Source of the DNA: Acidobacteria bacterium Ga0077551
Lineage (GTDB): Bacteria > Pseudomonadota > Alphaproteobacteria > Caulobacterales > Hyphomonadaceae
Assembly (NCBI GenBank): GCA_001464545.1
Contig: LNFC01000011.1
Span: 817 to 64,816, forward strand
DNA length: 64,000 bases
Direction: 5' to 3'
The translations under genes and the position numbers were made by a program. The notes under the pieces are model-generated. The model searched no databases. It was not told the origin of the DNA and worked only from the letters and a program-made list of their open reading frames with translations. Of this stretch, positions 13,430 to 63,885 are shown one piece after another (the stretch's first letter is position 1; every line of letters starts with the position of its first letter).

Positions 13430-13432
13430 TGA

Positions 13433-15400
13433 TCAGGGCGTGACGATCGGGAACGGCTCCGGCGCGGCCGGAGGATCGAGGACGCCGAGCAGGACCGCGG
13501 CGGCGGTTGGATCACCCGAGATGGTCAGCGCGCCCTTCATCACAAGGTCGGCCGGTTTCTGGCCCGCGAAGATCATGCCCAGGAAAGCCGCCTTCGGCAT
13601 CGTGAGCGTCGCCGAGGCAGGCTGGCCGGTGCCCGGCTCGTGCACGAGCACGGAGTTGCGGATGCTGACCAGGCGGGACTCGCCGAGGTCCGGGAACACG
13701 AACGCGATGGTGACCGATTTTCCGTCCGCCAACTGAGGATCGACCCGTACGGCGAGCATGTCGAAGACCTGCTCGACGGAGATGGCGGAGACGACATCCG
13801 CCGAAAGCGTGGACATGCCCGACGCGCTGGGATCGACGCGCGCTTCGACGGCGCCGGTGAGGTACATGTTGCGCCAGAGCGAGCCTTCGGCCTGGTAGCC
13901 CATCTGCTCGAAGGCCTTGGCGAGGAGTTCGCGCGCCTCGGTGTTGGTGTCATCGGCGAAGACGAGGTGGCTGGCGACTTCGGCGGCCCAGCGATAGTCG
14001 GCTTCGTTGAACGCCTTCTGCGCGGTCCGCAGCGCCTTGCCCGCACCGCCCATGGCTTCGACATAGCGCACGGCGGCCTGTTCGGGTGGCCAAGGGTTCA
14101 GGTTGGCGGGGTTGGCGTCGTACCAGCCGAGGTAGCGCTGGTACACGGCCTTCGAATTGTGGGCCATCGTGCCGTAATAGCCGCGATTGTACCATTTGGA
14201 GGCGAGGCTGTCCGGCAGGGCGATGACTTCGGCGATCTCTTCGGCGGTGTAGCCCTTGTTCATCAGGCGGACGGACTGGTCGTGGAGGTATTTGTAGGCG
14301 TCCCGGTGCGTGGCCATGAAGGATGCCACGTTTTCCTGTCCCCAGCGCGGCCAGCCGTGGGAGACGAACATCACGTCGGTGCGGGCGCCGTAGAGGTGGA
14401 TCGACTCGGTCAGATAGTCCGCCCACGCCTTTGAATCGCGCACGAGCGCGCCGCGCGGCGGAAGGATATTGTGCATCGTCGGGTTGGCATTCTCGGCGAG
14501 GCAGAGGGCTTTCAGGTGCGGAAGGTAGAAGTTCATCTCGGACGGAGCTTCGGTGCCGGGCGTGATCTGGAACTCGATCTCGATACCGTCGATGACGAGC
14601 TTCTGGCCGGTCTCGGTGATCGTCACGGTGGGCGCGATCAGGCTGAAGGAGCCGTTCGGCAAGCCGGTGCCGATACCGGCGCCGCCCTGCCCGGCCGGGC
14701 CGGGCGTCAGGCGGGTGCCAAACTGGTAGTTGGCGCGGCGGCTCATGGCGGGCCCGGCAATCAGGTTCTCGCTGACCGCGTGCTCCATGAACCCGTCTGG
14801 CGCGATGATCTGCACCTTGCCGGCGGCGACATCCGCGTCGGAGACAATGCCTTTGACCCCGCCGAAATGGTCACCGTGGCTGTGGGTGTAGATGACCGCG
14901 ACGATGGGCTTGTCGCCGATATGCTCGTGCACCAGCGACATGGCGGCAGCGGCGGTCTCCGTGGCGGTGAGCGGATCAACGATGATGTAGCCGGTTTCGG
15001 TGGCAATGATGCTCATCACCGAAATGTCGAAACCGCGGACCTGCCAGAGGCCCGGCGTGACTTCGAACAGGCCGTGATTGTTCAGGAGGCCGAGGTGGCG
15101 CCAGAGGCTGGGGTTCATCGTGTCAGGCGCGGCGCCTTCGGCGAAATCATAGGCGCCGGCGTCGAAAACGACGCGTCCGTCCGCAGCGAGAATCCTGGTG
15201 TCTTTCAGGGTGGCGATGAAGCCCTGGCTCGCCAGTGCGTTCTCGCTCTCGTCCGACCAGGGAAGGCCGGCCGAGAAGGCCTGATTGGCGGAGACCGTGG
15301 CCGGGGTTGCGACACCCGCCGGCGCGGTGACCTGCTGCGCGCAGGCTTGAATGCCCAGACAGATGGCAATCGCCGCCAAGGCGGACCTGGATTTCAACAT
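13433..15400 (-). CDS. Alkyl/aryl-sulfatase, metallo-beta-lactamase fold (SdsA1/YjcS type), secreted
   Basis: HSHGDHFGG zinc motif, a dimerisation region and a C-terminal SCP2-like region. Signal peptide MLKSRSALAAIAICLGIQACA. ATG 15400 has a GGGGAGA RBS. Confidence 0.8.
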   Translation of the reverse strand: MLKSRSALAAIAICLGIQACAQQVTAPAGVATPATVSANQAFSAGLPWSDESENALASQGFIATLKDTRILAADGRVVFDAGAYDFAEGAAPDTMNPSLWRHLGLLNNHGLFEVTPGLWQVRGFDISVMSIIATETGYIIVDPLTATETAAAAMSLVHEHIGDKPIVAVIYTHSHGDHFGGVKGIVSDADVAAGKVQIIAPDGFMEHAVSENLIAGPAMSRRANYQFGTRLTPGPAGQGGAGIGTGLPNGSFSLIAPTVTITETGQKLVIDGIEIEFQITPGTEAPSEMNFYLPHLKALCLAENANPTMHNILPPRGALVRDSKAWADYLTESIHLYGARTDVMFVSHGWPRWGQENVASFMATHRDAYKYLHDQSVRLMNKGYTAEEIAEVIALPDSLASKWYNRGYYGTMAHNSKAVYQRYLGWYDANPANLNPWPPEQAAVRYVEAMGGAGKALRTAQKAFNEADYRWAAEVASHLVFADDTNTEARELLAKAFEQMGYQAEGSLWRNMYLTGAVEARVDPSASGMSTLSADVVSAISVEQVFDMLAVRVDPQLADGKSVTIAFVFPDLGESRLVSIRNSVLVHEPGTGQPASATLTMPKAAFLGMIFAGQKPADLVMKGALTISGDPTAAAVLLGVLDPPAAPEPFPIVTP

Positions 15401-15557
15401 AGACGTCTCCCCGTTTGTGCCGGATTTTGTCAACCAGCTTACATTGGCGACCCTAGCGCGGAACGCGCGCCGCGCAACGGGACAATCGGCGGAATGCCGC
15501 AAGGGTATTTGGATTGCCCTCTGGACGCTCCGGCCATGGCCCGTCTATCTGCTTGCC

Positions 15558-16424
15558 ATGATCACCGGCCCGACTTCCCACAGCTATATCTCGCAGCGCG
15601 TGCGCCTTCATTATGTCGATTGGGGCAATCCCGATGCGCCGCCCCTGATCCTGCTGCATGGCGGGCGGGATCATTGCCGCAGCTGGGACTGGGTGGCCGA
15701 GGAGCTGCGCAATGACTGGCATGTCATCGCGCCGGACCTGCGCGGTCACGGCGACAGCGGCTGGTCTGCTGATGGCGACTATTCGGTGCGCTCCTGCGTC
15801 TATGACCTCGCGCAACTGATCCACCAGAAGAAGCTGGCACCGCTGACGATCGTTGCTCACTCGTATGGCGGGAACATCTCGCTGCGCTATGCCGGCATCT
15901 ATCCGGAAAACGTGCGCAAGGTGGTCGCCATCGAGGGGCTGGGGCCCTCGCCGCGCATGCTGAAGGAACGGATGGCCGAGCCGATTGCCAAGCGGATGCG
16001 CACATGGATCGACGCCAAGCGGGCCGCGGCTGGTCGCAGCCCGAAGAAGTACGCGACGCTGGAAGAAGCCTACGAGCGGATGAAGGAAGAGAACAAGTAT
16101 CTCTCCGATGCGCAGGCCCGGCATCTGACGATCCATGGCATCAGCCAGAACGAGGACAGCACCTATTCCTGGAAGTTCGACAATCATTTCCGCGTGATGG
16201 TGCCTTACGACCTGCCGCAGGATGACGTGGACGCGCTATGGCGCGAGATCACCTGCCCGACGCTCCTGCTCTACGGCCAGAACAGCTGGGCCTCGAACCC
16301 GGAAACGGATGGGCGGATTGCGAACTTCAAAAATGCGCAGGTCAAGGTCTACGAGAATGCCGGCCACTGGCTGCATCACGACCAGTTCGACCGGTTCGTT
16401 GCCGAGCTGAAAGCGTTCCTCTAA
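15558..16424 (+). CDS. Alpha/beta hydrolase
   Basis: LILLHGGRDHCRSW (HGG oxyanion motif) and nucleophile elbow AHSYGG. ATG 15558 is chosen over the 15351 extension. Confidence 0.8.
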   Translation: MITGPTSHSYISQRVRLHYVDWGNPDAPPLILLHGGRDHCRSWDWVAEELRNDWHVIAPDLRGHGDSGWSADGDYSVRSCVYDLAQLIHQKKLAPLTIVAHSYGGNISLRYAGIYPENVRKVVAIEGLGPSPRMLKERMAEPIAKRMRTWIDAKRAAAGRSPKKYATLEEAYERMKEENKYLSDAQARHLTIHGISQNEDSTYSWKFDNHFRVMVPYDLPQDDVDALWREITCPTLLLYGQNSWASNPETDGRIANFKNAQVKVYENAGHWLHHDQFDRFVAELKAFL

Positions 16425-16438
16425 GCGCCGCGCTGCGC

Positions 16439-17659
16439 TCAGGAGAAATGCAGTCGGCGATACTTGCCGCGGAAATAGAGCAGCGGGTCGCGGCGCGGAT
16501 CGAAGGTGGCGCGCAGGACTTCGCCGACGAGGATGACGTGGTCGCCGCCGTCGTGCATCTGGTGGCGGCGGCATTCGAAGTTCGCGAGCGCGTTCGACAG
16601 GACGGGCGCATCATGCCGGCCGCGCTGCCAAGGCGTCTGGCGGAAGCGGTCTTCGCCGGGCACCGCGAACAAGGTGGAGGCGGGTTGCTGGCCGATGTGC
16701 AGAACATTGACGGCAAAATGCTCTGCCAGTTCGAGGGCTTTGAGGCTGCTTGACGTCTTGGCGATGCAGACGAGGAGCAGCGGCGGGTCGAGCGAGACGG
16801 AGGTGAAGGAGTTGGCCGTGAGGCCGACCGGATCGCCGCCGGCATCGAAGGCGGTCACCACCGTTACGCCTGTTGCGAAACAGCCGAGCGCGTCGCGCAG
16901 GGTGCGCGCGTCCGAACCGGAGCGGTATTCCGGCACGAAGCGCGGGATGCGGCGTTCGAGGAAGTCGAGCAAAGTCGCGCTGAACAGGTCGCCGCGGTCG
17001 GAGGCGACGAGGTGACCCGCCTCCCCGATTTCGGCGTATTCGGCGGCGGGTATCTGTTCGACAATTCGGCTTGCGGAGGCGGCGTCGGTGATATCGCTGA
17101 GGGCGCCGCGCACGAACAGGGCGGGTACGCGGATTTTCGGCGCGGCGGCCTTGAAGCGTCTTAGCGCATCTTCGAGATCGAACCGCTCGAGCATGCGCGG
17201 ATCCCAGGCGCCCTTGGCGGTCTCGGAAGCGGCGCGAAGGGTGCCGGCGGCCTTCCGGATGTTCGTGAGGTCGAGGTCCGGCGGGGCGTCGGCGAGGATC
17301 AGGCCGGAGGCGAGATGTCCGCCGTCTTCGCCCACGGCCACGGCCGCGACCCATCCGCCGAGCGAGGCGCCGACGATGACCGGTCGGGAGGGCAGCTGGG
17401 CGAGGATGGCGCGAAGGTCTTCGACATAGGCGCCGAATTCGTAGCGGCCGTCGGCCGGCCACTCGCTTTCGCCGTGCCCGCGAAGGTCCAGGGCGATCAC
17501 TTGCCGGCCTGCGCGCACCAGGGCGGCGGCCGCATCGTTCCAGATGTCCCGTGTCTGGCCGCCGCCGTGCACCAGCAGCACCAGCGGATCATCGGGGTCG
17601 CCGCGCAGGTCACCGCGGATGACGACGCCGCCGAACCCCTTGAACTGCGAGAGTGGCAT
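16439..17659 (-). CDS. Fusion protein: N-terminal alpha/beta hydrolase + C-terminal flavin reductase-like domain
   Basis: N-terminus LVLLVHGGGQTRDIW and GASLGG elbow. C-terminus LRDALGCFATGVTVVTA...LTANSFTSVSLDPPLLLVCI, which is typical of the flavin reductase (HpaC/NtaB) fold. ATG 17659 has an AAGGA RBS. Confidence 0.75.
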   Translation of the reverse strand: MPLSQFKGFGGVVIRGDLRGDPDDPLVLLVHGGGQTRDIWNDAAAALVRAGRQVIALDLRGHGESEWPADGRYEFGAYVEDLRAILAQLPSRPVIVGASLGGWVAAVAVGEDGGHLASGLILADAPPDLDLTNIRKAAGTLRAASETAKGAWDPRMLERFDLEDALRRFKAAAPKIRVPALFVRGALSDITDAASASRIVEQIPAAEYAEIGEAGHLVASDRGDLFSATLLDFLERRIPRFVPEYRSGSDARTLRDALGCFATGVTVVTAFDAGGDPVGLTANSFTSVSLDPPLLLVCIAKTSSSLKALELAEHFAVNVLHIGQQPASTLFAVPGEDRFRQTPWQRGRHDAPVLSNALANFECRRHQMHDGGDHVILVGEVLRATFDPRRDPLLYFRGKYRRLHFS

Positions 17660-50127: not shown

Positions 50128-51804
50128 TCACTGCTCGATTGGAAATGTCAGCTCAATGATGACATTGTCGGGGTCGTCTCCGAGATCTTCGACCGCGCCG
50201 CCCATCTGACGCGCGAAGGCGGCGAGGAACAGGTTCGTATCCCGCGACCTCGTTGCCTCGTCACTCGCGGTGGGTTCCCGGCCGCAACTCATGCGGAGAC
50301 GCGCGTGGCCGTTCTCCTGCCGGAACTCAAGGCTCAGGTCCCGGATGACGCCGCTGTCGCCTGTCGCGGGGCACAGATGATCGAACGCTTCCTGCACGAA
50401 CATCGCCATCGGAACGGCAAGGTCTGACGGGAGGGACACATCCTCGACGTCGGGCACAAGATGCCGGCTCTCTTCTTCCCAGCCTTGCCGCTCATGGATC
50501 TGCTTGCAGATCGCGTCGAACAATTCCGACGCATCCACGGTTTCAATGTGCGATTCGTTGAGCAGCGAATGATGCACGGCCGCCATCATGGCGACGCGCT
50601 GGGCGGCGAGGCGCAGGGCCACCTGGGTCTCCGGTTGGACCTCGCTGCGGCCCTGCAGTTTCAGCATGCTGAGCATGACCTGAAGGTTGTTCTTGACGCG
50701 GTGATGCGTCTCGCGGAAGGCGCCCTTCATGCGGGCGAGGGCCTGCAGCAGGTCGGATTCGTGAACCTTCACGCTCTCTGTCAGATCGTCAAAGGCGCGG
50801 GCGAGTTGCTGAAGCTCTGCCGGGGCCCGCGCGAGATCGTCTGCCAGCGGCGTGTATTCGGCCGAGCGGCGAAGGTCCGAAATCCGAAGCCGCAAGCGTT
50901 CGATCCAGCGAAGCACCAGCGTGTCCATGATCCACGTGGCGGTCAGCAGGGCGGCCAGGAACGCCAGAACGGGGATCGTCAGTGCAACGACGGTCTCGAT
51001 CCGCGAATTCCGGGGCGTGGATGAAGGCGTGAGGATCCACAGGCTATCGGTCGCGAGCGGCATTACGACCACGTCAACGCGCCCGCCCTGGGGCAAACGA
51101 AGCTGGCGCGCGGTGCGCTCCAGGATGGCCTCGCTGGTCAACCACCCAACCGGTATGCGCTCGACGATCCCGGATCCCAGCACATCCCCGTCGACCAGCA
51201 CGATGCCCTGCCGCAATCCTGGCGAGGCGGTCTCCGGCAGGCTCTTTGCCAGCTGCTCAATGCTGACGGTCACGGCGACCGAGCCTTCAAATTCTCCGGC
51301 GTCATTTGCGACGCCTTGGAGCATCCAGATGACGGGGTCGCCCAAGGCCAGTCCGTCGAAGCGGGACGATTCGATGGTCTTCATGCCTCTTCGGAGCTGA
51401 TCGTTCCATCCAAGGTCGGGCATGGGCTGGCCGACGAGATTCTCGCCAGCGAAAAAGCACGTCACCTGCCCTTCGGCATTGAACCGAAAGACGTTGCGAA
51501 AGGGAAGATTGAGGCCTGAAAGACGATTGCTGATTTGTGTGCAGGTCGGTTTGCGTTCGTCGACTGCCATCAGGCTCAAGGCGAGGCGCGTGCCGGCGAG
51601 AACCGTGTCGACTCCGGATTGGCCTTCACGCGAGGTCTCCACCAGTTCCTGGTATTTTGCCTGTCTGGCTTCTTCGCGTTCGCCGCTGACACGCATGGCG
51701 CCGAGCACCAGCAGCGGGCTGAGCGCAAGCGCCATTGCGCCGATGACCTGCCAGCGCAGACTCATCCTCAGCGGCGCCGGCCCCCTCGCGATCTCCTCGT
51801 TCAT
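50128..51804 (-). CDS. GSR-associated HisKA_2-type sensor histidine kinase (PhyK/PhyP-like), two TM segments flanking a periplasmic domain
   Basis: H-box THHRVKNNLQVMLSMLKLQ. TM helices VIGAMALALSPLLVLGAM and LTIPVLAFLAALLTATWIM. The start ATG shares one base with the ecfG stop (TGATG). Confidence 0.8.
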   Translation of the reverse strand: MNEEIARGPAPLRMSLRWQVIGAMALALSPLLVLGAMRVSGEREEARQAKYQELVETSREGQSGVDTVLAGTRLALSLMAVDERKPTCTQISNRLSGLNLPFRNVFRFNAEGQVTCFFAGENLVGQPMPDLGWNDQLRRGMKTIESSRFDGLALGDPVIWMLQGVANDAGEFEGSVAVTVSIEQLAKSLPETASPGLRQGIVLVDGDVLGSGIVERIPVGWLTSEAILERTARQLRLPQGGRVDVVVMPLATDSLWILTPSSTPRNSRIETVVALTIPVLAFLAALLTATWIMDTLVLRWIERLRLRISDLRRSAEYTPLADDLARAPAELQQLARAFDDLTESVKVHESDLLQALARMKGAFRETHHRVKNNLQVMLSMLKLQGRSEVQPETQVALRLAAQRVAMMAAVHHSLLNESHIETVDASELFDAICKQIHERQGWEEESRHLVPDVEDVSLPSDLAVPMAMFVQEAFDHLCPATGDSGVIRDLSLEFRQENGHARLRMSCGREPTASDEATRSRDTNLFLAAFARQMGGAVEDLGDDPDNVIIELTFPIEQ

Positions 51805-52406
51805 CAGCTTTCCCGGCTCAGAGCGCTGACTTGGTCCATGATGTTGTTGAACGCCGCCTTGCCGGACGTGATGGCGGGCGCGCCGGCCAGGGCCTTGGGC
51901 GCCTTGTCGCCGCCCAGCATTTCTCCGAGTGCCTTGCGGGCGCGGCTGACGCGGCTCTTGATGGTGCCGACGGCGCAACCGATGATCTGGGCGGCTTCTT
52001 CGTAAGCCATGCCGCCGGCGCCCACGAGGATGATCGCTTCGCGCTGGTCGTCGGGCAGATGATCGAGCGCATTGCGCAGTTCGACCAGTTCCATCCCCTT
52101 GCTCGGATCATCCGACGCCACGAGCGTGCGCTCGGCCATCTCGGGAGACAGTTCTGTGGAGCGCCACGAGCGGCGCTTTTCGGAATAGAAGACGTTGCGA
52201 AGGATCGTAAAGGTCCAGGCGCGGAAGCTGGTGGTCGGCGTGAAGCTGTCGCGCGCCTTCCAGGCCCGCAGCATCGTGTCCTGAACCAGGTCGTCCGCGG
52301 CCACGGCGTCGTTGCACAGGCTGCGCGCGAAGGCGCGCAGGTGCGGCACCATTTCCAGGAGGGCTGCCTTGAACTCGCTGGCCGGGAGCGGGAGCGGCGC
52401 TGTCAT
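51804..52406 (-). CDS. ecfG: ECF sigma factor EcfG (general stress response)
   Basis: Sigma regions 2 and 4 are recognisable. It lies immediately downstream of and overlapping nepR (ATGA), and divergent from phyR. Confidence 0.85.
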   Translation of the reverse strand: MTAPLPLPASEFKAALLEMVPHLRAFARSLCNDAVAADDLVQDTMLRAWKARDSFTPTTSFRAWTFTILRNVFYSEKRRSWRSTELSPEMAERTLVASDDPSKGMELVELRNALDHLPDDQREAIILVGAGGMAYEEAAQIIGCAVGTIKSRVSRARKALGEMLGGDKAPKALAGAPAITSGKAAFNNIMDQVSALSRES

Positions 52407-52612
52407 GAGGCGCCGGTTTCAGGCTGACCGGACTCGCTGCGCTCGGCCGCCTCAGCTTCTTCCAGCAGTTTCAGGAACTCGTCCGGAATGGACTCGTCCA
52501 CGACGCCTTCGTACATCTGGCGCAAACGTTCACCGATCGCCCGGTTGCCAAGGCGCCGCTGGCTCTTAGGACCATCGGACGGACCCCCTTCGGGCTTTCT
52601 GGTATCGCTCAT
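52403..52612 (-). CDS. nepR: Anti-sigma factor NepR
   Basis: 69 aa. IGERLRQMYEGVVDESIPDEFLKLLEE matches the NepR core pattern. Position is upstream of ecfG. Confidence 0.85.
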   Translation of the reverse strand: MSDTRKPEGGPSDGPKSQRRLGNRAIGERLRQMYEGVVDESIPDEFLKLLEEAEAAERSESGQPETGAS

Positions 52613-52686
52613 CGCACCACCTTAAATTCGGGTCACCTGGCGGAATAACCAGTTTCTCAAGCCAATTTTGCCATATTCAGGCCAAT

Positions 52687-52711
52687 AACGCATCAGCGCA
52701 GAACGAGTTCC
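52687..52711 (-). promoter_or_regulatory. EcfG-type promoter for nepR-ecfG-kinase (GGAAC-N16-CGTT on the minus strand)
   Basis: The + strand reads AACG (52687..52690)-N16-GTTCC (52707..52711), 75 nt upstream of the nepR start. Confidence 0.65.
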
Positions 52712-52751
52712 CTGCGTTGCTGCTGATTTCGAAAATAATTTCAGATCGGGT

Positions 52752-52776
52752 GAAACCAATCTCGATGAGGGGCGTT
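52752..52776 (+). promoter_or_regulatory. EcfG-type promoter for phyR (GAAAC-N16-CGTT)
   Basis: One mismatch in the -35 element. CGTT at 52773..52776 lies 32 nt before ATG 52808. Confidence 0.55.
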
Positions 52777-52807
52777 GTTACGCATGTACACGCAGGAGGT
52801 TCCCTAG

Positions 52808-53599
52808 ATGTCGATGATTGCACAATTCCGTCCCCATCTGCCGTTCTTGAGGCGATATGCGCGCGCGCTCACGGGCACGCAGCAAAGCGGTGACGCCTAC
52901 ATTCTCGCGAGTCTCGAAGCCATGAAAGAGGCCCCCGGCCAGATCGTCGAGGCCTCTACGGCGCGCGTCACGCTATACCAGTTCTTCCATGCCATCTGGT
53001 CAACCACCGGCGCGCATCTCGAAACGGGAGCGAAAGCAGCAATGGCCTCGCCCGAGGCGCGGCTTCGCAAGCTGGCACCGATCGAACGGCAGGCTTTTCT
53101 CCTGACGACCCTTGAGGGCTTCACGCGTTCGGAAGCCTGCGAGATTCTCGGCAAAAGCAAAGGTGAACTGGAAGCGCTTCTTGATGCCGCGCACCGCGAG
53201 ATCGAGAAACAGCTGACGACTTCGGTGCTGATCATCGAGGACGAGCCTATCATTGCGGCAGATCTCGCGCACCTTGTGGAAGATCTTGGCCACAAGTTCG
53301 CGGGCGGCGCAGCGACGCGGCGGGCGGCCGTGGAAATGGCGAAACGCCTGAAGCCGGGCCTTATCCTGTGCGATGTTCAGTTGGCGGACAATTCGTCGGG
53401 CATCGACGCCGTGCAGGACATCCTCGAAGAGATGGACGTTCCAGTGATCTTCATCACCGCGTTTCCCGAGCGCCTGCTGACCGGCGAGCGGCCGGAGCCG
53501 ACCTATCTGATCACGAAGCCATTCCAGGACGATACGGTGAAGGCCGCCATCAGCCAGGCCTTGTTCTTTGGAACAGAAGCGGCCGTCGAGGAGATCTGA
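52808..53599 (+). CDS. phyR: Anti-anti-sigma response regulator PhyR (sigma-like domain + receiver)
   Basis: [23 protein letters not shown] sigma-like N-terminus. C-terminal receiver VLIIEDEPI...[14 protein letters not shown]...KPF. Confidence 0.9.
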
Positions 53600-53613
53600 C
53601 GCGCAATTTGTTT

Positions 53614-53638
53614 GGAACGTTACCAAATGAGCGGCGTT
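53614..53638 (+). promoter_or_regulatory. EcfG-type promoter GGAAC-N16-CGTT
   Basis: Exact match, ending 51 nt before the DUF1328 start codon. Confidence 0.6.
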
Positions 53639-53688
53639 GTATCTTCGTAGACTGCCTGAATGGTCGGGCACAGAAAATGGAGGCACAC

Positions 53689-53862
53689 ATGCTCGGTTGG
53701 GCACTTACATTTTTCGTTCTGGCGATCATCGCTGCTTTGCTCGGTTTCGGCGGCATCGCCGGCGCCGCTGCAGGCATCGCACAATTCCTGTTCGTCGTAT
53801 TCCTCGTCCTTCTCGTGGTCACCTTCATTGTCCGCGCACTCCGAGGACGGAGCATAACCTGA
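53689..53862 (+). CDS. DUF1328 (UPF0391) small membrane protein
   Basis: [52 protein letters not shown] 5 nt upstream. Confidence 0.8.
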
Positions 53863-53952
53863 ATTTCCCAGCGGCCCCTCCCCCTCCTGCAAACCGCTGA
53901 GGAACCGGCGCCGGCCAAGCTTCCCCCCCACGTACGTTTGGCCGCGCGCCGA

Positions 53953-53988
53953 CCGCCATCCAGTCAACCTGGATGGCGGTTTCGCTTT
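53953..53988 (+). terminator. Rho-independent terminator after the DUF1328 gene
   Basis: Perfect 11-bp stem CCGCCATCCAG-tcaac-CTGGATGGCGG followed by TTTCGCTTT. Confidence 0.8.
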
Positions 53989-54005
53989 GAGCGGATGTCT
54001 GGAAA

Positions 54006-55181
54006 TCAGTCGTGTGGTGGACGGTGCGGCACTGAAAAGGTCACGACGAGACGGCCGTTTTCGATCACGCGGTCCATCGTTCCGCCTGCGGACAAGACGA
54101 GCCGGCGCATGACGTGCAGGCCGGTATGCGTCGATGACGCCTGCTCGGTGTCATCAAGGTCGACACGGTCCACGCCTTCGGTCCAGACGAGCCTAAGCCA
54201 GCTGTCCTTGAGTTCGCCCTCGCAGTGGACCGCGTCGCCGGCGCGCAAGGCGCCGTACTTGAGCGAATTCGTGGTCAGCTCTCCAATCACGACAGCGATG
54301 ATCCGCATGCCGGATTCATCGATGCGGCAATCCGGAAGGAGAGAAACATCGAAGGTCTCGGCACTGACGCCTGCTGCGCTGACGAGATCAGAGATGAGTT
54401 CGCGCAATGGAAAATCCTGCGCAACGTCGACCAGCTTTGCCTGGGCAACGGCGAGAGACGAAAAGCGATTGACGAGCGCCTCGGCAAAAGACTGGTGCTC
54501 GGGCGCCGTGCGCGCACTTATCTTGGTGATCGCACTGGAGATGGCGAACGCATTCTTGAGGCGGTGACGCATTTCAAGGGCGATCGTTTCATACATCTTC
54601 CGGTTGGTGACGGTTTCGGTGACGTCCTTCGACACGACAAGGAGACGGATGACGTGCCCGGAAGCGTCGGTCACCGGCGAGATGCGTACATCCCACCATT
54701 TGGGCGTGCCCTGAGCGGTCGGGCAAAATCCGCGGAAGTCCCAGAGCTTGCCCGCGGCGGCGCTGGTGTTCGCTTCACGGACGGCAGCTTCGGCCTCTGC
54801 GGGCCAGATGTCCCACCAATAGCGCCCCAAGACATCTTCAGCGCCGGCCATCTGCCGCACCAGCAGGCCTGCGCGGTTGATGTAAAGCACGCGCCCTTCG
54901 GGATCGAGCAGCTTTATGCAATCGCGGCTGTTGTCGAGCATCGCGGTCAGCACGGCGTCCATGACGTCGGGGCCGGATGGAAGCATGCCTTGGAATTCCG
55001 AGGACCGGAACATCTGTACATACCTTTCACTACCAGGATCGCCGGTCAGGGCGTGTCCCGGGACCTCCATAGAACTACCAGAGTGTGACGCCAGGGCCAA
55101 TGCCCGGTATGCGAGTGGTACCCCACCGGGCCGCAGATGCCGCTTTTTAGGCCTGACGGGCGGCACCTTCCCTTGCGCCAT
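54006..55181 (-). CDS. PAS domain-containing HWE-family sensor histidine kinase (cytoplasmic)
   Basis: H-box EMRHRLKNAFAISSAITKI with an upstream PAS region (DCIKLLDPEGRVLYINRAG). The start is uncertain: ATG 55181 (GAAGGA RBS), 55070 or 55013, and the ORF is open to 55208. Confidence 0.75.
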   Translation of the reverse strand: MAQGKVPPVRPKKRHLRPGGVPLAYRALALASHSGSSMEVPGHALTGDPGSERYVQMFRSSEFQGMLPSGPDVMDAVLTAMLDNSRDCIKLLDPEGRVLYINRAGLLVRQMAGAEDVLGRYWWDIWPAEAEAAVREANTSAAAGKLWDFRGFCPTAQGTPKWWDVRISPVTDASGHVIRLLVVSKDVTETVTNRKMYETIALEMRHRLKNAFAISSAITKISARTAPEHQSFAEALVNRFSSLAVAQAKLVDVAQDFPLRELISDLVSAAGVSAETFDVSLLPDCRIDESGMRIIAVVIGELTTNSLKYGALRAGDAVHCEGELKDSWLRLVWTEGVDRVDLDDTEQASSTHTGLHVMRRLVLSAGGTMDRVIENGRLVVTFSVPHRPPHD

Positions 55182-55242
55182 TGTTCCTTCGGTTTGTGTT
55201 GTGTGCAAGATCGGTCAAAACACAAACTTGCCGGGGAGAGAC

Positions 55243-59350: not shown

Positions 59351-59552
59351 GTCGGGCCTCCCTGTTCGATCTGGCCGCGCGGGGCGCTGCCAATCCGTCT
59401 GTTTGATTGCCGCCAACTTTGAGGTGCTGGAAGGCGAGGTCAATCCATTCCGCGAAGTCACCCCGCCGCCGGTCGACGCACCGCGCCTCGACTTGCCCGG
59501 CATCGCCGCATAGGCTGAATTCAAAGCATTGTGGGAGGTTGGCGGGCGCAAC

Positions 59553-62480
59553 ATGGCGGACGAAGCGAGGACTTACCGCGCCTTCATCAGCTATTCCCAG
59601 CAAGACAAGCTGTGGGGCAAACGCCTGCATGGCTGGCTTGAGAGCTATCGTCTGCCGGCCGGCACCACGGCCCGCGTGCCCGCCGGCGAGCGGCTCGGCC
59701 GCTTTTTCCGCGATGATGAGGAGATGGCGGCAGCCTCCAACATCGCCAGCATCGTCGAGAAATCCATCGACGAATCGGAAAGCATGATCGTCATCTGCTC
59801 GCCGCGCTCCGCCAAATCCCAATGGGTCGCCTCAGAAATCGAACGGTTCCGGCGCCGGGGCCGGGACGGCAAGGTTTTCGCGTTCATCATCGACGGCGTT
59901 CCAAACTCGGGGGACCCCGAAACCGAGTGCTTCCCCCCTGCCCTTCGCCGCAGTGCCAATCCGGACAATCCGAACGATCTGCCGATCGAGCCTCTGGGGC
60001 TGGATATCCGCAAGGATGGCCGGGACCGCGCCGTGGCGCGTCTGGCAGCGGGACTGCTGGATGCCGACTTCGACGATCTCTGGCAGCGGGACCGGCGGCG
60101 CGATGAATCGCGACTGCGCCAATTGATCCTTGGGCTGACGGTGCTGAGCTCCGTGTTTGCCTTGCTGGCGGCGACAGCAGTCTTCATGGGCCTTCAGGCC
60201 CGGCAGAACGAGCGGATCGCACACGACAATCTCGCGGCATTCTTTGCCGAGCGGGCCTGGCAGAACCTGGACCGCGAAAACCCGCTGGCGGCCGCGCGGT
60301 ACGCCCTAGCGGGGCGGCAACTGTCGGAAACGAACGCGCGAAGCTACCATGCCGTTCTGGGCGCCGTCATGTTTGATGCCGGCGAGACATTGCCGCCCCT
60401 GTTACACGACGGGGCCATCCTGAGCGGCGTCTACGCCCCGGACGGCCGGACCGTCGTCACAACCAGCCAGGACACGGCCGCAAAAATCTGGGCTGCAGAC
60501 ACCGGCACACTGATTTCTACACTGACCGGCCATACAGACCGTGTCGGCGCTGCCGCCTTCTCACCAAATGGCGCGCGGCTCGCCACAGCCAGCAATGACG
60601 GCAGCGCCATCGTCTGGGATATCAAAAATATCAGCGTCGTGGCCCGCCTTACGGGGCACGAACAGGCTCTTCAGACGATAGAGTTTTCGCCAGATGGCCT
60701 CACCGTGCTCACGGCCAGCCGGGATGGAACTGCGCGCATCTGGAATGCCGCAACCGGCGCCGTGGTTCACCAACTCGGCACACCGGGTGACGCCGTCTGG
60801 ACGGCTAGGTATTCAGGTGACGGTCAACGGATCGTGACGTCGCATGAAGATGGCAAGGCGCGGATCTGGAGCGTGGCGGATGGTCGTTTGATCAGGACAC
60901 TGACGGGGCATACTGGCGCGATTTATGGCGCATCGTTTTCACCGGACGCGTCCCGGATCGTCACGGCCAGCTTCGACCAGACCGCCCGTATCTGGAACGC
61001 GGCGAACGGCAGAACATTGGCCACGCTTGAGGGGCATACGGACAGCGTGCTGACCGGCGTTTTCTCGCCTGATGGGAAGACAGTCGCCACAGCCAGCGGC
61101 GACTCCACCGCGCGCCTCTGGGATGCTCGGACCGGCCGTCTGAAATCCATACTGACCGGGCATAAGGGAACCGTCCGCACCGCGACATTCTCAGCGGATG
61201 GCGAATGGCTTCTGACCATCAGCAACGATGCCACTTCCAAACTCTGGAGCGCCGCTACGGGAGAGCTGTCGAGAACCTTGCTGGGCCATGCTGAACGCAT
61301 CCGGATGGGCGTGTTCTCGCCCAACGGCCAGCAGATCCTGACCGCGAGCGACGACGGCACAGCGAAGATCTGGCGGGCCCGGGGGCGGCTGCTCTCGAGC
61401 TTTGCCGTCGGTGAAGACGCTGTGGCCTTCGCGGAGCTTTCGCGCGACGGCGCCTACCTGGTCACGGCGGGTCAGGACGACACGGTGCAGGTCTGGGACG
61501 CGGAGACGGCCAAGCGCCTTGCGATTCTGACGGAGCACACGGGCGATGTTTACGGCGTCGCCTTTTCGCCCGATGCATCGCATGTCGTCACCGCCAGCCA
61601 AGATGGTACCAGCAAGATCTGGGACTGGAAAACCGGAAAGGTTACCGCGACGCTGGTTGGACATCAGGGACCTGTCACCAGCGCATCCTATTCGCGGCAA
61701 GGCGACCGGATTGTTACCGCCAGTGAAGACACCACCGCCAGGGTATGGGACGCAGCGACCGGGAAGATCCTGTTCACATTGGCCGCGGAAGGCGACACCG
61801 TGCGAGGCGCGGAATTCTCACCCGATGGCACGCTGATCGTGACCGCCGGTCGCGACCGGATCGCGCGCATCTGGAGCGCCGTGGACGGATCAATGCTGGG
61901 CATGCTCGAAGGCCATACCGGCAGCATCGGGTCGGCGGCGTTTTCGCCGGATGGCAAACGCATCGTGACCGGCAGCGCGGATGGAACAGCCCGGGTCTGG
62001 GACACAACGGATCGCCGCGTGGTGGCAACCCTGACCGCCCTCAAGGGCATTGTCTCGACTGTCCAGTTCTCCCCTGACGGCGAGCGCATCGCGACGGCAA
62101 ACCTCGATCAGACGGCCAACATCTGGGACGCTGAAGATGGCCGCCTGCTGACGACCTTGCCCGGGTTTGGAAGCGAGGTGCGCAGTGCGACATTCTCCGC
62201 CGACGGATCGCGGATCGTTGCGGCCAGTAGCGACGGGACGATCCGCATCTGGGATGTTTCCCGCCTGACGCAGGACTGGGACACCCTTGCGGCAGGCGCC
62301 TGCACCTACCTGCTCAGTGCCGCCAGCCGCGAGTTTTCCCGGCTGGAGATAGAAACGGACCAGCTTCTCGGCTCCGAGTGGCCGGATGCGTCGCGAGATG
62401 TGTGTTCGGGCGCACAGCGCACGCCAACCATTTCGGAGCTTTACGCAGCCGCAGGCATCGAACGGCATGCCCGCGACTGA
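59553..62480 (+). CDS. TIR domain - single TM helix - 15x WD40-repeat protein
   Basis: N-terminal TIR pattern YRAFISYSQQD...MIVICSPRSAKSQWVASEIERF...FAFIIDG. TM helix LILGLTVLSSVFALLAATAVFMGL (60123..60194). Fifteen 42-aa blades of pattern GHxxxVxxAxFSPDGxxIVTASxDxTARIWDxxxGxxLxTL. Confidence 0.85.
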   Translation: MADEARTYRAFISYSQQDKLWGKRLHGWLESYRLPAGTTARVPAGERLGRFFRDDEEMAAASNIASIVEKSIDESESMIVICSPRSAKSQWVASEIERFRRRGRDGKVFAFIIDGVPNSGDPETECFPPALRRSANPDNPNDLPIEPLGLDIRKDGRDRAVARLAAGLLDADFDDLWQRDRRRDESRLRQLILGLTVLSSVFALLAATAVFMGLQARQNERIAHDNLAAFFAERAWQNLDRENPLAAARYALAGRQLSETNARSYHAVLGAVMFDAGETLPPLLHDGAILSGVYAPDGRTVVTTSQDTAAKIWAADTGTLISTLTGHTDRVGAAAFSPNGARLATASNDGSAIVWDIKNISVVARLTGHEQALQTIEFSPDGLTVLTASRDGTARIWNAATGAVVHQLGTPGDAVWTARYSGDGQRIVTSHEDGKARIWSVADGRLIRTLTGHTGAIYGASFSPDASRIVTASFDQTARIWNAANGRTLATLEGHTDSVLTGVFSPDGKTVATASGDSTARLWDARTGRLKSILTGHKGTVRTATFSADGEWLLTISNDATSKLWSAATGELSRTLLGHAERIRMGVFSPNGQQILTASDDGTAKIWRARGRLLSSFAVGEDAVAFAELSRDGAYLVTAGQDDTVQVWDAETAKRLAILTEHTGDVYGVAFSPDASHVVTASQDGTSKIWDWKTGKVTATLVGHQGPVTSASYSRQGDRIVTASEDTTARVWDAATGKILFTLAAEGDTVRGAEFSPDGTLIVTAGRDRIARIWSAVDGSMLGMLEGHTGSIGSAAFSPDGKRIVTGSADGTARVWDTTDRRVVATLTALKGIVSTVQFSPDGERIATANLDQTANIWDAEDGRLLTTLPGFGSEVRSATFSADGSRIVAASSDGTIRIWDVSRLTQDWDTLAAGACTYLLSAASREFSRLEIETDQLLGSEWPDASRDVCSGAQRTPTISELYAAAGIERHARD
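60400..62267 (+). repeat. Tandem 126-nt coding repeats (15 WD40 blades)
   Basis: Periodic FSPDG / TAS.DGTARIW units counted by eye in the translation. Confidence 0.8.
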
Positions 62481-62503: not shown

Positions 62504-62528
62504 AAAAAAACGCCTAGTCGTCAGGCGT
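62504..62528 (-). terminator. Rho-independent terminator of the acidic-protein gene (overlaps its stop codon)
   Basis: The + strand reads AAAAAAA-ACGCCT-agtcgtc-AGGCGT, which on the minus strand is the hairpin followed by a U-run. Confidence 0.65.
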
Positions 62529-62876
62529 GGTACCCGGCCTGGTCGAGCCGCCGGGATCGCTCTCAGCCGTGGAGCCCGGGGCGGCGAGAACCGCGCCATC
62601 GGCTGGGGCCGCGTCGGCCACCGGTGCGGGCAGCGGAGCAGCTTCCGGTTCGGCAGCTTCGGTCACGGCTTCAACCGGCGCTTCAGATTCCTGCAGCATT
62701 TCTGCTGGTTCTTCTGCTTCAACGTCTTCCTCGACCCACTCTTCCTCCGGCTCAACGATTTCCGCCTCTACAACATCCTCGCCTTGAGCGAGCGCAATTG
62801 CGGATACGGACGAGACGAGAGACGCGGCCACAAAGGCCGTTGCCGTGAGAAGTGTTCTGCCAACCTGTCGCATCAT
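62514..62876 (-). CDS. Secreted acidic low-complexity protein
   Basis: Signal peptide MMRQVGRTLLTATAFVAASLVSSVSAIALA, then a Glu/Ala/Pro/Val-rich tract. AAGGGG RBS before ATG 62876. Confidence 0.6.
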   Translation of the reverse strand: MMRQVGRTLLTATAFVAASLVSSVSAIALAQGEDVVEAEIVEPEEEWVEEDVEAEEPAEMLQESEAPVEAVTEAAEPEAAPLPAPVADAAPADGAVLAAPGSTAESDPGGSTRPGTTPDD

Positions 62877-62984: not shown

Positions 62985-63791
62985 TCACTCGAACCCGCGC
63001 ATCCCGTATTTCAGGCGGGCATCGATCATCTCGTAGCAAAGCGTGATGATGAAATGATCATCCTCCGGATTGGCGCTGCGGACCGTGTCAAAGTAAAAGG
63101 TGTCTGATTTCGCCTTGCCTTCGCAGCTCATCGCTTGGATCGACGTGCGATTGGTCAGGTAGAACTCGGCCTCGATATCGTCTTTCAGGTCTTCTACCAC
63201 CCCGCTGTCGCGCAGGAACTGATGTGCATCCTCCATCCCGCCGGTGGGCGCCACATAAACGATATTGATGGACTGCCCAGTCTGGCCGCTATAATCGCGG
63301 AACACCTCGTCGATCTCGTTCTCCATCGCCTGGTACAACGCGGTGCAATCCGTGTTCGGATCAACGAGCTCTGCGAAGTCGGCGAATGCCACTGGGTTGC
63401 TGCCATACATGAGGCAGATGATGTCCAGCGCGCGCTGTTGCGGCGGCGCGTGAGGTTCGTTGCGGATGATGGAGCTGTCTACCTGCAGCCAGCCGCCTGC
63501 CGCGCTGATGATTTCGTCGATACCATCCGGATCATCCGCATCCGGCTGGAGCAGGATCATCGCGAACTTGTCGGCATAGTCCTCCCGGTCCGCGCTCGAC
63601 CAGTCCGGATTGTTGTTCATGTCTGCGATCTGTCCCATCAGCAGATGTCCGGCTTCATGGTAGGCGAGGAAACGGACGAACCCCCGGACGAATGTTTCGG
63701 TCGCTTCGTCACGCGGCGGGGTTTCGGGCTGCGCGACGAACGATAGCGGCGCGAGGATCGCGGCGACAATCAAGGACCGAAGGACATTCAT
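62985..63791 (-). CDS. Putative secreted zinc metallopeptidase (HExxH; DUF4344-like)
   Basis: Signal-like N-terminus MNVLRSLIVAAILAPLSFVA. HEAGH motif in FLAYHEAGHLLMGQ. GGGGAG RBS before ATG 63791. Confidence 0.6.
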   Translation of the reverse strand: MNVLRSLIVAAILAPLSFVAQPETPPRDEATETFVRGFVRFLAYHEAGHLLMGQIADMNNNPDWSSADREDYADKFAMILLQPDADDPDGIDEIISAAGGWLQVDSSIIRNEPHAPPQQRALDIICLMYGSNPVAFADFAELVDPNTDCTALYQAMENEIDEVFRDYSGQTGQSINIVYVAPTGGMEDAHQFLRDSGVVEDLKDDIEAEFYLTNRTSIQAMSCEGKAKSDTFYFDTVRSANPEDDHFIITLCYEMIDARLKYGMRGFE

Positions 63792-63885
63792 TGTGATCAC
63801 TCCCCGTAGAACGTGATCCTAACTCATTTTCGCGGATTATGAAGATGGGCTGAGCGGTGGGCGTTCGCTGCCAGCGGTTTGGGGG

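Follow-up and report, generated by a model that had tools for sequence, protein, structure and literature searches.

The 975-residue protein encoded at positions 59,553 to 62,480 of the window (the whole stretch of 64,000 nucleotides that was analyzed) is predicted to be a bacterial membrane protein with a TIR domain of the NAD-cleaving type on the inside and a large WD40 propeller sensor on the outside. The best explanation, which we regard as having about an even chance of being correct, is a Thoeris-like TIR pathway in which a single-pass inner-membrane receptor directs its sensor toward the periplasm or envelope. No description of a bacterial protein with a TIR domain, a transmembrane (TM) helix, and WD40 repeats was found in the literature searched. 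The relevant features are as follows.

59351..59552, no strand: intergenic region, common with a divergent acyl-CoA dehydrogenase gene (sequence read)
59553..62480, plus strand: whole gene, stop codon included, for the 975-residue TIR - TM - 15xWD40 - Cys-pair tail protein (ORF list, translation)
59580..60062, plus strand: TIR domain proper, residues 10-170, with a conserved C-terminal half (Pfam TIR_2, AlphaFold2/Foldseek, invariant alignment columns)
59835..59837, plus strand: codon for Glu 95, at the catalytic-Glu position of NAD-cleaving TIR domains, W91-x3-E95 (alignment)
60069..60122, plus strand: Arg-rich cytoplasmic helix leading into the membrane, residues 173-190, ..FDDLWQRDRRRDESRLRQ (AlphaFold2 model; motif conserved family-wide)
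60123..60194, plus strand: single TM helix, residues 191-214, predicted signal-anchor, N-in/C-out (hydropathy, charge bias)
60195..60368, plus strand: predicted periplasmic juxtamembrane helices, residues 215-272, ..FFAERAW..AARYALAG.. (AlphaFold2 model)
60369..62255, plus strand: 15 tandem WD40 repeats, residues 273-901, predicted periplasmic, enough for two propellers (PF00400, segmentation)
62256..62477, plus strand: C-terminal tail, residues 902-975, with a conserved Cys pair, likely a disulfide (Cys spacing in orthologues)
62510..62528, minus strand: terminator-like hairpin between the two convergent genes, which are 33 nt apart (consensus scan only, which is weak evidence)
62514..62876, minus strand: small secreted acidic protein, about 120 residues from MMRQVG.. 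(ORF list)
62985..63800, minus strand: DUF4344 putative metallopeptidase, 271 residues, with a signal peptide (Pfam DUF4344, PF14247, 60 bits)

Domain architecture and predicted topology

The open reading frame extends from 59,529 or 59,553 to 62,480 on the plus strand. The ATG at 59,553 yields 975 residues and agrees with the N-termini of the orthologues, which are 940-1000 residues in length and occur in about 40 genomes. A GGGAGG sequence is positioned 13 nt 5' of this ATG, and a scan of the region upstream revealed no sigma-70-like promoter.

The N-terminal region is matched by Pfam TIR_2 from residue 11 to residue 114 with a score of 41.8 bits (cut-off 28), and the ThsB_TIR (29.2 bits, cut-off 21.2) and TIR (24.0 bits, cut-off 21.3) profiles likewise lie above their curated thresholds. 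The AlphaFold2 model for residues 1-287, with a pLDDT of 83.9, displays a TIR fold of the flavodoxin-like alpha/beta type. All of its significant Foldseek matches in the PDB are TIR domains, with RUN1, TLR1, MAL, BcThsB, SARM1, and AbTir at the top of the list. Glu 95 aligns with the glutamate of the S.WC..E motif in plant L6 and RUN1, and within the W91-x3-E95 motif it is invariant in 16 diverse family members. The aligned RUN1 residue is taken by us to be E100 on the basis of the motif and the literature rather than of residue numbering in the alignment; PDB entry 7s2z is the NAD-bound E100A mutant of RUN1. The invariance of E95 and W91, the alignment with the RUN1 and L6 glutamates, and a dN/dS of 0.04-0.09 for the domain argue for a catalytically competent TIR.

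The segment that follows had been described in the sequence-only reading as a linker of about 60 residues. Such a segment is present, but it is not a loose one. Residues 115-170 belong to the TIR module and are highly conserved, with E125-C126-F127 (ECF) and E146-P147 and D151 (EP...D, 146-151) invariant, and residues 173-240 are modeled as one continuous helix through the membrane. Further helices are formed by residues 244-255 and 262-275 in the AlphaFold2 model. The juxtamembrane helices are retained in members of the WD40 type, including the distant P0116.

The Kyte-Doolittle 19-residue maximum of 2.25 falls at residues 191-214, a stretch of 24 uncharged hydrophobic residues, and no other segment of the protein rises above the threshold. 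Exactly one TM helix is found in the same place (residues ∼185-220) in 119 of the 136 best newly retrieved representatives. The 15 positions preceding the helix contain six lysine or arginine residues, compared with two in the 15 that follow. The corresponding family means are 6.3 on the N side versus 2.4 on the C side, with the N side richer in every one of 76 members. Cysteines show a similar asymmetry, the density being 1.37 per 100 residues before the helix versus 0.32 after it, and 107 of 126 representatives have an even number of cysteines C-terminal to it. From these simple rules we strongly infer a predicted single-pass, N-in/C-out topology. The periplasmic placement of the WD40 region is further supported by the two conserved neighbors described below, both of which have signal peptides and one of which, the DUF4344 protein, contains four invariant cysteines.

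The repeat region contains exactly 15 WD40 repeats by segmentation, fourteen of 42 residues and one of 41, and PF00400 matches 13 stretches with a total of 419 bits. Beyond it lies the tail with Cys 917 (62,301-62,303) and Cys 951 (62,403-62,405), the only cysteines following the helix. A pair spaced by 33-35 residues occurs in 38 of 41 orthologues, the rest of the WD40 region being nearly devoid of cysteine, and the distant P0116 has the same tail. Membership in the TolB/PQQ propellers was rejected, given that the NCBIfam similarity is below threshold (TolB, 97 bits versus a cut-off of 343). Positional orthology of the blades is complete in close relatives (15/15) and falls to 2-9 of 15 in distant ones, which gives too little information for a ligand to be inferred. 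Between the TIR and WD40 regions lie the TM helix and only about 60 residues from that helix to the first blade, and no Pfam match to a P-loop or STAND domain (NACHT, NB-ARC, AAA_16) was observed in the 975-residue protein.

Much of this architecture had been drawn in the sequence-only reading: an N-terminal TIR domain without a signal peptide and with a glutamate at the catalytic position (codon 59,835-59,837), one hydrophobic helix at 60,123-60,194, 15 WD40 blades, a tail holding the sole cysteine pair after the helix, and no NTPase. Pfam profiles (TIR_2 among them, at the score given above), hydropathy, repeat segmentation, translation, and the alignment with L6 and RUN1 together with invariance of the glutamate all bear it out. 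The proposed division into a cytoplasmic TIR and a periplasmic WD40 region is supported by prediction throughout the family, on the strength of the charge bias and the even cysteine counts.

Conserved neighbors and the wider family

At 32 or more of the 44 orthologous loci the DUF4344 gene lies downstream of the TIR gene in convergent orientation, while the outer flanks vary. All three of the divergent DUF4344 homologues examined adjoin a TIR orthologue of 959-975 residues. The encoded protein resembles the DUF4344 family (PF14247) in its 60-bit match and its HExxH motif, here HEAGH with a downstream glutamate, and differs in that the subfamily, which comprises 69 clusters, is tied to the TIR receptor gene. 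The alignment also reveals conserved E73 and D77. Close homologues contain 268 residues versus the 271 here, and the gene may start three codons downstream. The AlphaFold2 model has a pLDDT of 86.7, and Foldseek provided no fold match for it in the PDB (best E value 0.09). In the literature searched, DUF4344 appears only as a domain of antibacterial effectors of the Xanthomonas type IV secretion system (T4SS; PMC6536674).

The gene for the small acidic protein sits between the TIR and DUF4344 genes in many loci. Its product has a signal peptide, an acidic low-complexity region, and a conserved C-terminal motif, PGSTAESDPGGSTRPGTTPDD, and shows no Pfam match. In other clades an acidic tail ending in ..LGSGGARV.RRPR is fused to the C-terminus of DUF4344. 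Note that the link between the DUF4344 and TIR genes is convergent rather than operonic, and thus part of it could be inherited synteny. Hairpins in the region are no more numerous than in shuffled sequence by the consensus scan.

Of 80 loci, 10 have a SLATT-domain protein, referred to here as c4, next to a family member, and in four of these c4 is encoded immediately upstream in the same orientation. Only six loci of the WD40 type have it nearby. Its SLATT_1 match has an E value of 5e-9 and falls below the NCBIfam curated cut-off (36 versus 41 bits), and a profile search against PDB sequences gave no match. All three unselected c4 loci contain adjacent TIR genes, one of which belongs to the TIR+helix family. 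The N-terminal domain of c4 (GVTGHR..GGTGHT) has a SLOG-like look, which is an impression only. No SLATT, SLOG, Macro, or SIR2-like gene or other candidate effector was found beside the TIR gene or in the 64-kb window; the one tblastn match of c4 in the window was an antisense artifact over the TIR gene.

The sequence-only reading had suggested a possible one-component system and had noted no meaningful neighbors. With DUF4344 and the acidic protein as conserved convergent partners, and an adjacent SLATT-domain protein in related loci, the receptor is probably not a one-component device. Nor is it isolated, for no fewer than 1,422 clusters (50% identity, E<1e-30) contain the TIR+helix module, attached to WD40, FGE-sulfatase, TPR, MORN, or TCAF_N domains. 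The TIR+TM module is thus constant and the C-terminal domains are swapped, WD40 or other propellers being present in more than half of the 136 best newly retrieved representatives. Several genomes contain two paralogues. The only names met for members were "TIR domain-containing protein," "WD40 repeat protein," and "hypothetical."

Purifying selection is evident across the TIR, membrane, and WD40 parts (dN/dS of 0.04-0.14), with values of 0.13-0.14 for the WD40 region and 0.22-0.25 at the variable blade positions. A hypervariable sensor shaped by an arms race was dropped from consideration, as dN/dS is below 1 everywhere, including at those positions, and the test for positive selection was negative. 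Given this purifying selection on the WD40 region, a stable endogenous ligand fits at least as well as phage sensing.

The genes surrounding the locus, which include those for acyl-CoA metabolism, PhyR/EcfG, and an HWE kinase, are housekeeping and general-stress-response genes rather than a defense island. The recurrent flanking families at other loci are housekeeping-like as judged by eye from their sequences, and the orthologue is present in many Hyphomonas and Hyphomonadaceae genomes in non-defense contexts. The native GC content and the lack of flanking mobile elements noted earlier were confirmed. PADLOC, applied to the whole protein, its N-terminal part, the DUF4344 neighbor, c4, and two paralogues, gave no meaningful match. 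Its hits were weak or of the repeat type (the propeller to HEAT-ARM_XIII, ThsB/SAVED-TIR, and HExxH), and a catalogued defense system was rejected on that basis. Viral contigs scanned with the module alignment yielded no relatives. The abortive-infection or antiphage role suggested earlier thus finds no support in PADLOC, in the housekeeping neighborhood, among viral contigs, or in the mode of selection, and a defense role is unproven.

Relation to known TIR systems and membrane receptors

According to a Thoeris survey preprint (Yirmiya et al., bioRxiv 2025, 10.64898/2025.12.03.692087), the experimentally validated type VII system consists of a TIR protein (ThsB) and the SLATT effector ThsH with cADPR as the signal, and type III combines several TIR proteins with one SLOG effector. 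Standalone TIR genes were discarded in that survey, which places the TIR+helix family outside the survey. The protein described here is similar to Thoeris in its catalytic-position glutamate and its match to the ThsB_TIR model, and to type VII in that family members at related loci adjoin a SLATT-domain membrane protein, in some cases along with further TIR genes. It differs in that a TM helix anchors the TIR and connects it to a predicted periplasmic sensor of 760 residues, whereas the ThsB proteins described are taken to be soluble cytoplasmic sensors. In addition, no effector gene is adjacent at this locus, such adjacency being seen only in related loci (c4, 10 of 80), and the gene lies outside a defense island.

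The TIR-STAND-repeat proteins (Avs or bacterial NLR-like proteins and plant TNLs) share the N-terminal TIR and the C-terminal repeat sensor (WD40, TPR, or LRR). Here, however, the NTPase switch is absent and the two modules are separated by a membrane, such that the sensing compartment differs.

The animal TLR analogy drawn in the sequence-only reading holds only for the topology. As in the TLR/IL-1 receptors, a single-pass protein would place a repeat-built ectodomain outside and a TIR inside, and TLR1/2 TIR structures are among those matching the fold. The parts, on the other hand, come in inverted order. The TIR is N-terminal and followed by a signal-anchor helix, with no signal peptide, rather than C-terminal in a type I orientation, and the ectodomain is formed by WD40 propellers rather than by LRR or Ig domains. 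The TIR retains the enzymatic glutamate, whereas TLR TIRs are scaffolds, and only the TIR domain is homologous.

The receptor Ser/Thr kinases of Planctomycetota, in which a kinase is followed by a TM helix and WD40, TPR, or FGE-sulfatase domains predicted to be periplasmic (PMC11032199), lend further support to a periplasmic WD40 region here. Metacaspase - TM - sensor proteins are also known (PMC3501461). Both share with the present family its logic and its C-terminal sensor repertoire behind one TM helix, and differ in the output domain, which is a TIR here and a kinase or caspase-like protease there. In papers from the Aravind group, FGS and WD40 sensors are mostly treated as intracellular.

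Proposed mechanism, alternatives, and implications

The analysis shows which domains are present, a glutamate in the catalytic position, a single TM helix, the size of the family, and the linkage of the genes. With regard to the ligand, the oligomerization, the product, the effector, and the biological role, be it defense or physiological signaling, we can only infer a scheme. In the preferred reading the N-terminal TIR would remain in the cytoplasm while the signal-anchor helix crosses the inner membrane once, leaving in the periplasm some 760 residues that would form the juxtamembrane helices, a double propeller of 15 WD40 blades, and a tail stapled by a disulfide. When the propellers bind a ligand in the periplasm, the long transmembrane helices would change in register or in the way they cluster. 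The TIR domains thus brought together would assemble composite active sites, as in other TIR enzymes, and cleave NAD+ via Glu 95. The output would most likely be not simple depletion of NAD+ but a diffusible ADP-ribose-derived signal with a separate effector as its target, because family members elsewhere, like the TIR protein of type VII Thoeris, adjoin a conserved SLATT membrane protein. On the periplasmic side, the secreted gluzincin-like DUF4344 metallopeptidase and the small acidic protein with its C-terminal motif probably take part in the input.

Given the lack of an effector gene in the 64-kb window and the few WD40-type loci with c4, the TIR itself could also deplete NAD+ as the output, or the output could be of another kind. 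Such depletion is central to the alternative favored in the sequence-only reading, a one-component suicide sensor of the same topology in which the WD40 region would sense envelope damage or phage contact and the TIR, being itself the effector, would oligomerize and deplete bulk NAD+, leading to growth arrest or abortive infection with neither a diffusible signal nor a partner effector. The absence of an adjacent effector gene from the window and from most WD40-type loci and the invariant glutamate are in its favor, as is the depletion of NAD+ by TIR effectors in CBASS, Pycsar, pAgo, and Avs reported in the preprint (10.64898/2025.12.03.692087). It is rather unlikely, however, in that a typical patchy defense gene would not be expected in a housekeeping context, without PADLOC matches, under purifying selection, and with orthologues conserved across a bacterial family. 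Furthermore, the SLATT protein that recurs beside family members is suggestive of signaling, and the conserved secreted partners would be left unexplained.

Those partners find a place in a physiological receptor, the WD40 region of which would bind the C-terminal motif of the acidic protein following processing by DUF4344, with a TIR-derived second messenger regulating envelope, stress, or developmental functions in Hyphomonadaceae. The three-gene module is conserved, with two of its parts fused in some clades, all parts are under purifying selection, and the orthologue is spread across many Hyphomonas and Hyphomonadaceae genomes in non-defense contexts. Short peptides are common ligands of WD40 propellers. 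We nevertheless consider this reading doubtful. We know of no bacterial TIR with a housekeeping signaling role, none was found in the literature searched, and the family link to pore-type SLATT effectors suggests a toxic output.

Finally, it is very improbable that the membrane-receptor reading is wrong altogether, with the helix buried or peripheral and both domains cytoplasmic, or with the TIR a non-catalytic scaffold as in animal TLR adaptors: the topology rests on simple rules only, canonical bacterial WD40 repeats are mostly cytoplasmic, and many TIR domains are scaffolds, but the 24 uncharged hydrophobic residues with a Kyte-Doolittle value of 2.25, the charge bias in 76/76 members, the even cysteine parity in 107/126 representatives, and the secreted partner proteins argue against the former, and the invariant glutamate and WxxxE motif against the latter.

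The preferred reading of a Thoeris-like envelope receptor can be extended, at a level that is speculative and quite unlikely to hold in full, to a Toll/Spaetzle-like module. In it DUF4344 would process an acidic pro-peptide, the motif PGST.ES.PGGSTRPGTTPD would serve as the WD40 ligand, the bound receptor would activate its TIR enzyme, and paralogous receptors would share a SLATT effector. If so, the paralogous TCAF_N, FGE-sulfatase, and TPR ectodomains would constitute a repertoire of envelope-facing TIR receptors converging on that shared effector, some with a secreted partner of their own such as DUF3472.

To our knowledge, the TIR proteins of bacterial immunity that have been investigated to date (Thoeris ThsB, TIR-SAVED, TIR-pAgo, and TIR-STAND) are cytoplasmic. 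Coupling a sensor outside the membrane to a TIR enzyme on its inner side would give TIR signaling a new input compartment, and the family would be a prokaryotic example of the receptor topology of animal TLRs. Its members, which offer a defined catalytic residue and a three-gene module as well as a possible peptide ligand, would be tractable candidates for the study of transmembrane TIR activation, and this very large, unstudied family may reveal how bacteria couple envelope sensing to TIR signaling.

Architecture of the TIR-TM-WD40 protein

The protein is encoded by one long open reading frame in the ORF list of the window. Its parts, as located by translation, hydropathy and repeat segmentation, are the following.

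59529/59553-62480, plus strand: TIR-TM-WD40 open reading frame
59835-59837, plus strand: codon of Glu95, the glutamate at the catalytic position
60123-60194, plus strand: single membrane helix, aa 191-214 (Kyte-Doolittle 19-residue maximum of 2.25)
aa 273-901, plus strand: 15 WD40 units (14 with 42 aa, one with 41)

The ATG at 59553, with GGGAGG 13 nt on its 5' side, gives a protein of 975 aa that starts MADEARTYRAFISYSQ, in agreement with the N-termini of the orthologues. The two families for which the sequence-only reading had proposed HMM searches are both present. Indeed, the N-terminal part, scanned alone against Pfam, matched TIR_2 with 41.8 bits (cut-off 28) as well as ThsB_TIR with 29.2 bits, and the region from aa ∼290 to 900 matched WD40 (PF00400) with 419 bits together with many propeller families. 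The stretch from aa 191 to 214 is the sole strongly hydrophobic one, Cys residues C917 and C951 in the tail are the only ones C-terminal of the helix, and no NTPase domain was matched by Pfam in the protein. The architecture first read from the sequence, namely a TIR domain, one helix, 15 WD40 units and a two-Cys tail with no NTPase between TIR and WD40, was thus borne out.

The model of aa 1-287, built with AlphaFold2 on 16 family sequences, has a mean pLDDT of 83.9. It displays a TIR fold from aa 10 to 170, followed by a single unbroken helix (aa 173-240) that runs through the membrane. The significant PDB matches found with Foldseek are all TIR domains: RUN1, TLR1, MAL, B. cereus ThsB, SARM1, AbTir and SPARTA. 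In a sequence alignment to solved structures, the 'SQWVASE' of the window protein is matched with 'SKWCLME' of L6 and 'SRWCLDE' of RUN1, and Glu95 therefore aligns with the motif glutamate, just where the sequence-only reading had placed it. We take the motif glutamate to be E100 of RUN1 on the basis of the motif and the literature rather than of residue numbering in the alignment; a structure of the RUN1 E100A mutant with bound NAD exists. The segment that had been described as a 60-aa linker is present but belongs to a conserved module, with the invariant E125-C126-F127, E146-P147 and D151 in aa 115-170 of the family alignment.

Family and predicted topology

With the first 287 aa as query, 420 relatives were retrieved, in which the TIR+helix module is 45-80% identical and the C-terminus varies, the domains there being WD40, FGE-sulfatase, TPR, MORN and PF27016 (TCAF_N). 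HMMER, run exhaustively with aa 1-214 on 1.84 billion representatives, returned 9,287 matches at E<1e-10 and at least 1,422 at E<1e-30, and the best 150 all span essentially the entire module. Of 136 representatives that were new to the set, 119 show one hydrophobic helix and no more, located at aa ∼185-220. WD40 repeats were recognized in 76 with an HMM from the window protein's own blades, and five carry an FGE-sulfatase domain; nine of the remainder, examined with Pfam, comprise four divergent propellers and five proteins with no Pfam domain after the helix. Family members bear no source names more specific than 'TIR domain-containing protein' or 'WD40 repeat protein'.

Among GTDB species genomes, 177 relatives were detected, the best 80 of which come mainly from Hyphomonas, Hyphomonadaceae and Caulobacterales, with a few from Gammaproteobacteria or Acidobacteriota. 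The two nearest are 97% identical across the N-terminal query, an identity that assigns the window to a Hyphomonas-like alphaproteobacterium. Approximately 40 full-length orthologues of 940-1000 aa retain the layout unchanged, and several genomes encode two paralogues with differing C-terminal domains. At locus L034 (∼12250-16800), a second TIR-TM-WD40 paralogue of 1067 aa, on the opposite strand, lies ∼2.5 kb downstream of the first, past the DUF4344 gene. Locus L001 (CAMDAC010000033.1), labelled 'Candidatus Sulfopaludibacter sp.' (Acidobacteriota), encodes a TIR protein 97% identical to aa 1-287 of the window protein and has the gene order of the window; the contig is Hyphomonas-like and was probably mis-binned.

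Topology was judged by family-wide rules. In 76 members, the 15 residues flanking the helix contain on average 6.3 Lys/Arg before it versus 2.4 after it, and the N-terminal side has the excess in 76/76, a family-wide pattern that supports the N-in/C-out prediction made earlier from the window protein by the positive-inside rule. The tail Cys pair, spaced by 33-35 residues, is found in 38 of 41 orthologues, and 30 of the 41 are otherwise Cys-free over the ∼760 aa that follow the helix. Cysteine density falls from 1.37 per 100 aa before the helix to 0.32 beyond it, and the count of Cys after the helix is even in 107/126 representatives. This pattern is the look of disulfide-bonded extracytoplasmic domains. 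Both conserved neighbours described below are predicted to be secreted and were counted with this evidence. In planctomycete Ser/Thr kinases, WD40, TPR and FGE-sulfatase domains are likewise predicted to be periplasmic behind one helix (PMC11032199), and metacaspase-TM-sensor proteins were catalogued earlier (PMC3501461). Taken together, a cytoplasmic TIR domain and a periplasmic WD40 region are strongly inferred. The best-supported reading is that of a bitopic receptor in which a predicted periplasmic WD40 sensor is coupled to a cytoplasmic, putatively catalytically competent TIR domain.

Secreted neighbours and genomic setting

The sequence-only reading had also called for a survey of conserved neighbours and had itself named none near the gene. 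Clustering of the ORFs of 80 loci revealed two that it had overlooked.

62514-62876, minus strand: small acidic protein, between the TIR gene and the DUF4344 gene
62985-63800, minus strand: DUF4344 protein, 271 aa (Pfam 'putative metallopeptidase', 60 bits)

The DUF4344 gene lies directly downstream of the TIR gene, in convergent orientation, in at least 32 of the 44 WD40-type loci with enough flank, and the genes beyond it vary from locus to locus. Its product carries a signal peptide and four invariant Cys residues. The HEAGH is likewise invariant and is followed, 21 residues on, by a Glu, a distance that we read as gluzincin-like spacing. The subfamily is small (69 clusters), and three of three divergent members, selected by the length of their contigs, adjoin an orthologue of 959-975 aa with 51-55% identity to the window protein. 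The AlphaFold2 model (pLDDT 86.7) gave no fold match in the PDB. The list of domains in antibacterial effectors of Xanthomonas type IV secretion includes DUF4344 (PMC6536674), and the fold may accordingly act on envelope targets.

The acidic protein has a signal peptide and a low-complexity stretch rich in acidic residues. At its C-terminus is a conserved motif, which is PGST.ES.PGGSTRPGTTPD in Hyphomonas and takes the form PLGSSG.GGTGGNGRP.QDP in other genera. Where a clade is without the small gene, the DUF4344 protein bears a C-terminal acidic extension ending ..DDLGSGGARV.RRPR. It would represent a fusion of the two proteins, the homology being moderately supported by a short shared motif. 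On the basis of linkage, the three genes are taken to be a functional module. At one metagenomic locus, a short gene (L084:5287-5712) that adjoins the DUF4344 gene matches a phage integrase weakly and is the sole mobile-element hint around the module. At loci L046, L050, L051, L056 and L057, the gene just downstream of a ∼455-aa TIR-TM-TCAF_N paralogue encodes a signal-peptide-bearing DUF3472 protein, and thus each receptor type may have its own periplasmic partner.

The surroundings of the TIR gene, which include two acyl-CoA dehydrogenases, an acyl-CoA ligase and the Pfam-assigned genes below, are not a defence island.

51804-52406, minus strand: EcfG-type sigma factor
52808-53599, plus strand: PhyR
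∼53680-53862, plus strand: DUF1328 small membrane protein
54006-55208, minus strand: PAS/HWE histidine kinase

Together, these four genes (51804-55208) make up a complete general-stress-response cluster of the alphaproteobacterial type, which lies ∼4 kb upstream of the TIR gene. The GC content of the TIR gene resembles that of the remainder of the window, as had been noted from the sequence; positions 1-2000 have a GC of 0.72, well over the window average of ∼0.64, and a GC skew of +0.21. PADLOC returned no real match for any component, and viral contigs yielded no relatives of the TIR+helix module.

The TIR module is the most conserved region and the WD40 region the least (55-72% versus 34-52% identity in distant orthologues). 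Comparison with three close relatives gives a dN/dS of 0.04-0.09 for TIR and 0.13-0.14 for WD40, and within the blades 0.22-0.25 at variable and 0.07-0.08 at scaffold positions. These values indicate purifying selection throughout, with no arms-race signature against the three relatives. A rival reading, a non-immune receptor for peptide or envelope signalling, is considered unlikely. Between window 59553-62477 and a relative at L002:1551-4475, dS amounts to 0.10 over the TIR part, rising to 0.6-0.7 at the TM helix and beyond. This jump suggests recombination between close strains near the TIR/TM junction, in agreement with the modular domain swaps in the family.

SLATT-like proteins and proposed signalling

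A membrane protein of ∼670 aa, referred to as c4, is encoded beside the TIR gene in 10 of 80 loci, directly upstream on the same strand in four of them (L033, L034, L035 and L043). Its soluble N-terminal domain spans ∼250 aa and precedes two pairs of TM helices. The NCBIfam match to SLATT_1 (E 5e-9, 36 bits) is under the cut-off of 41, and those to SLATT_4 (NCBIfam) and DUF4231 (Pfam) are weak. More than 1,500 homologues exist, all without a name. Three of three, picked solely for long contigs, adjoin TIR_2 genes on the same strand, encoding TIR-TPR, TIR-AAA_16 and a TIR-TM-TCAF_N that is 58% identical to the window TIR+helix module. Two clusters from other Alphaproteobacteria, with c4 and the TIR genes on one strand, look like multi-TIR Thoeris-type systems: L085:1-7022 (c4, STAND-like TIR-AAA_16, a beta-lactamase-fold gene and TIR-TPR) and L087:2867-8393 (c4, TIR-TPR, a thioesterase and TIR-TM-TCAF_N). 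A 2025 preprint from the Sorek laboratory reports a validated type VII Thoeris with a TIR, a SLATT effector and canonical cADPR as signal, cites a type III with several TIRs and one SLOG effector, and states that standalone TIR genes were dropped from its survey (bioRxiv 10.64898/2025.12.03.692087). No c4 lies within the 64-kb window. Another rival reading, a one-component suicide sensor that depletes NAD+, is considered unlikely.

For the bitopic receptor, a course from ligand and activation mechanism to product, effector and a role in defence or physiology can be proposed. Ligand-dependent clustering would assemble the TIR active sites, and the product, a signal derived from ADPR, would act on a separate effector, of the SLATT type where linked. 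On the periplasmic side, the DUF4344 peptidase and the acidic peptide would take part in the input. That the topology is wrong, or the TIR domain non-catalytic, is highly improbable beside the charge and Cys patterns and the aligned Glu95.

Judged by the available tests, the protein resembles a Thoeris sensor or a receptor kinase in how it works. It does not belong to Thoeris, because the two features tested in the window, an adjacent effector and a defence-island context, are both absent. Nor is it a STAND/NLR protein, which has an NTPase that it lacks, or a TLR, as LRRs are missing and its parts stand in inverted order. No description of bacterial TIR-TM-WD40 proteins was found in the literature searched. 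What sets the protein apart is the predicted transmembrane input to its TIR sensor/enzyme, which would face the envelope, and the window gene stands for a large unstudied family rather than a single oddity.
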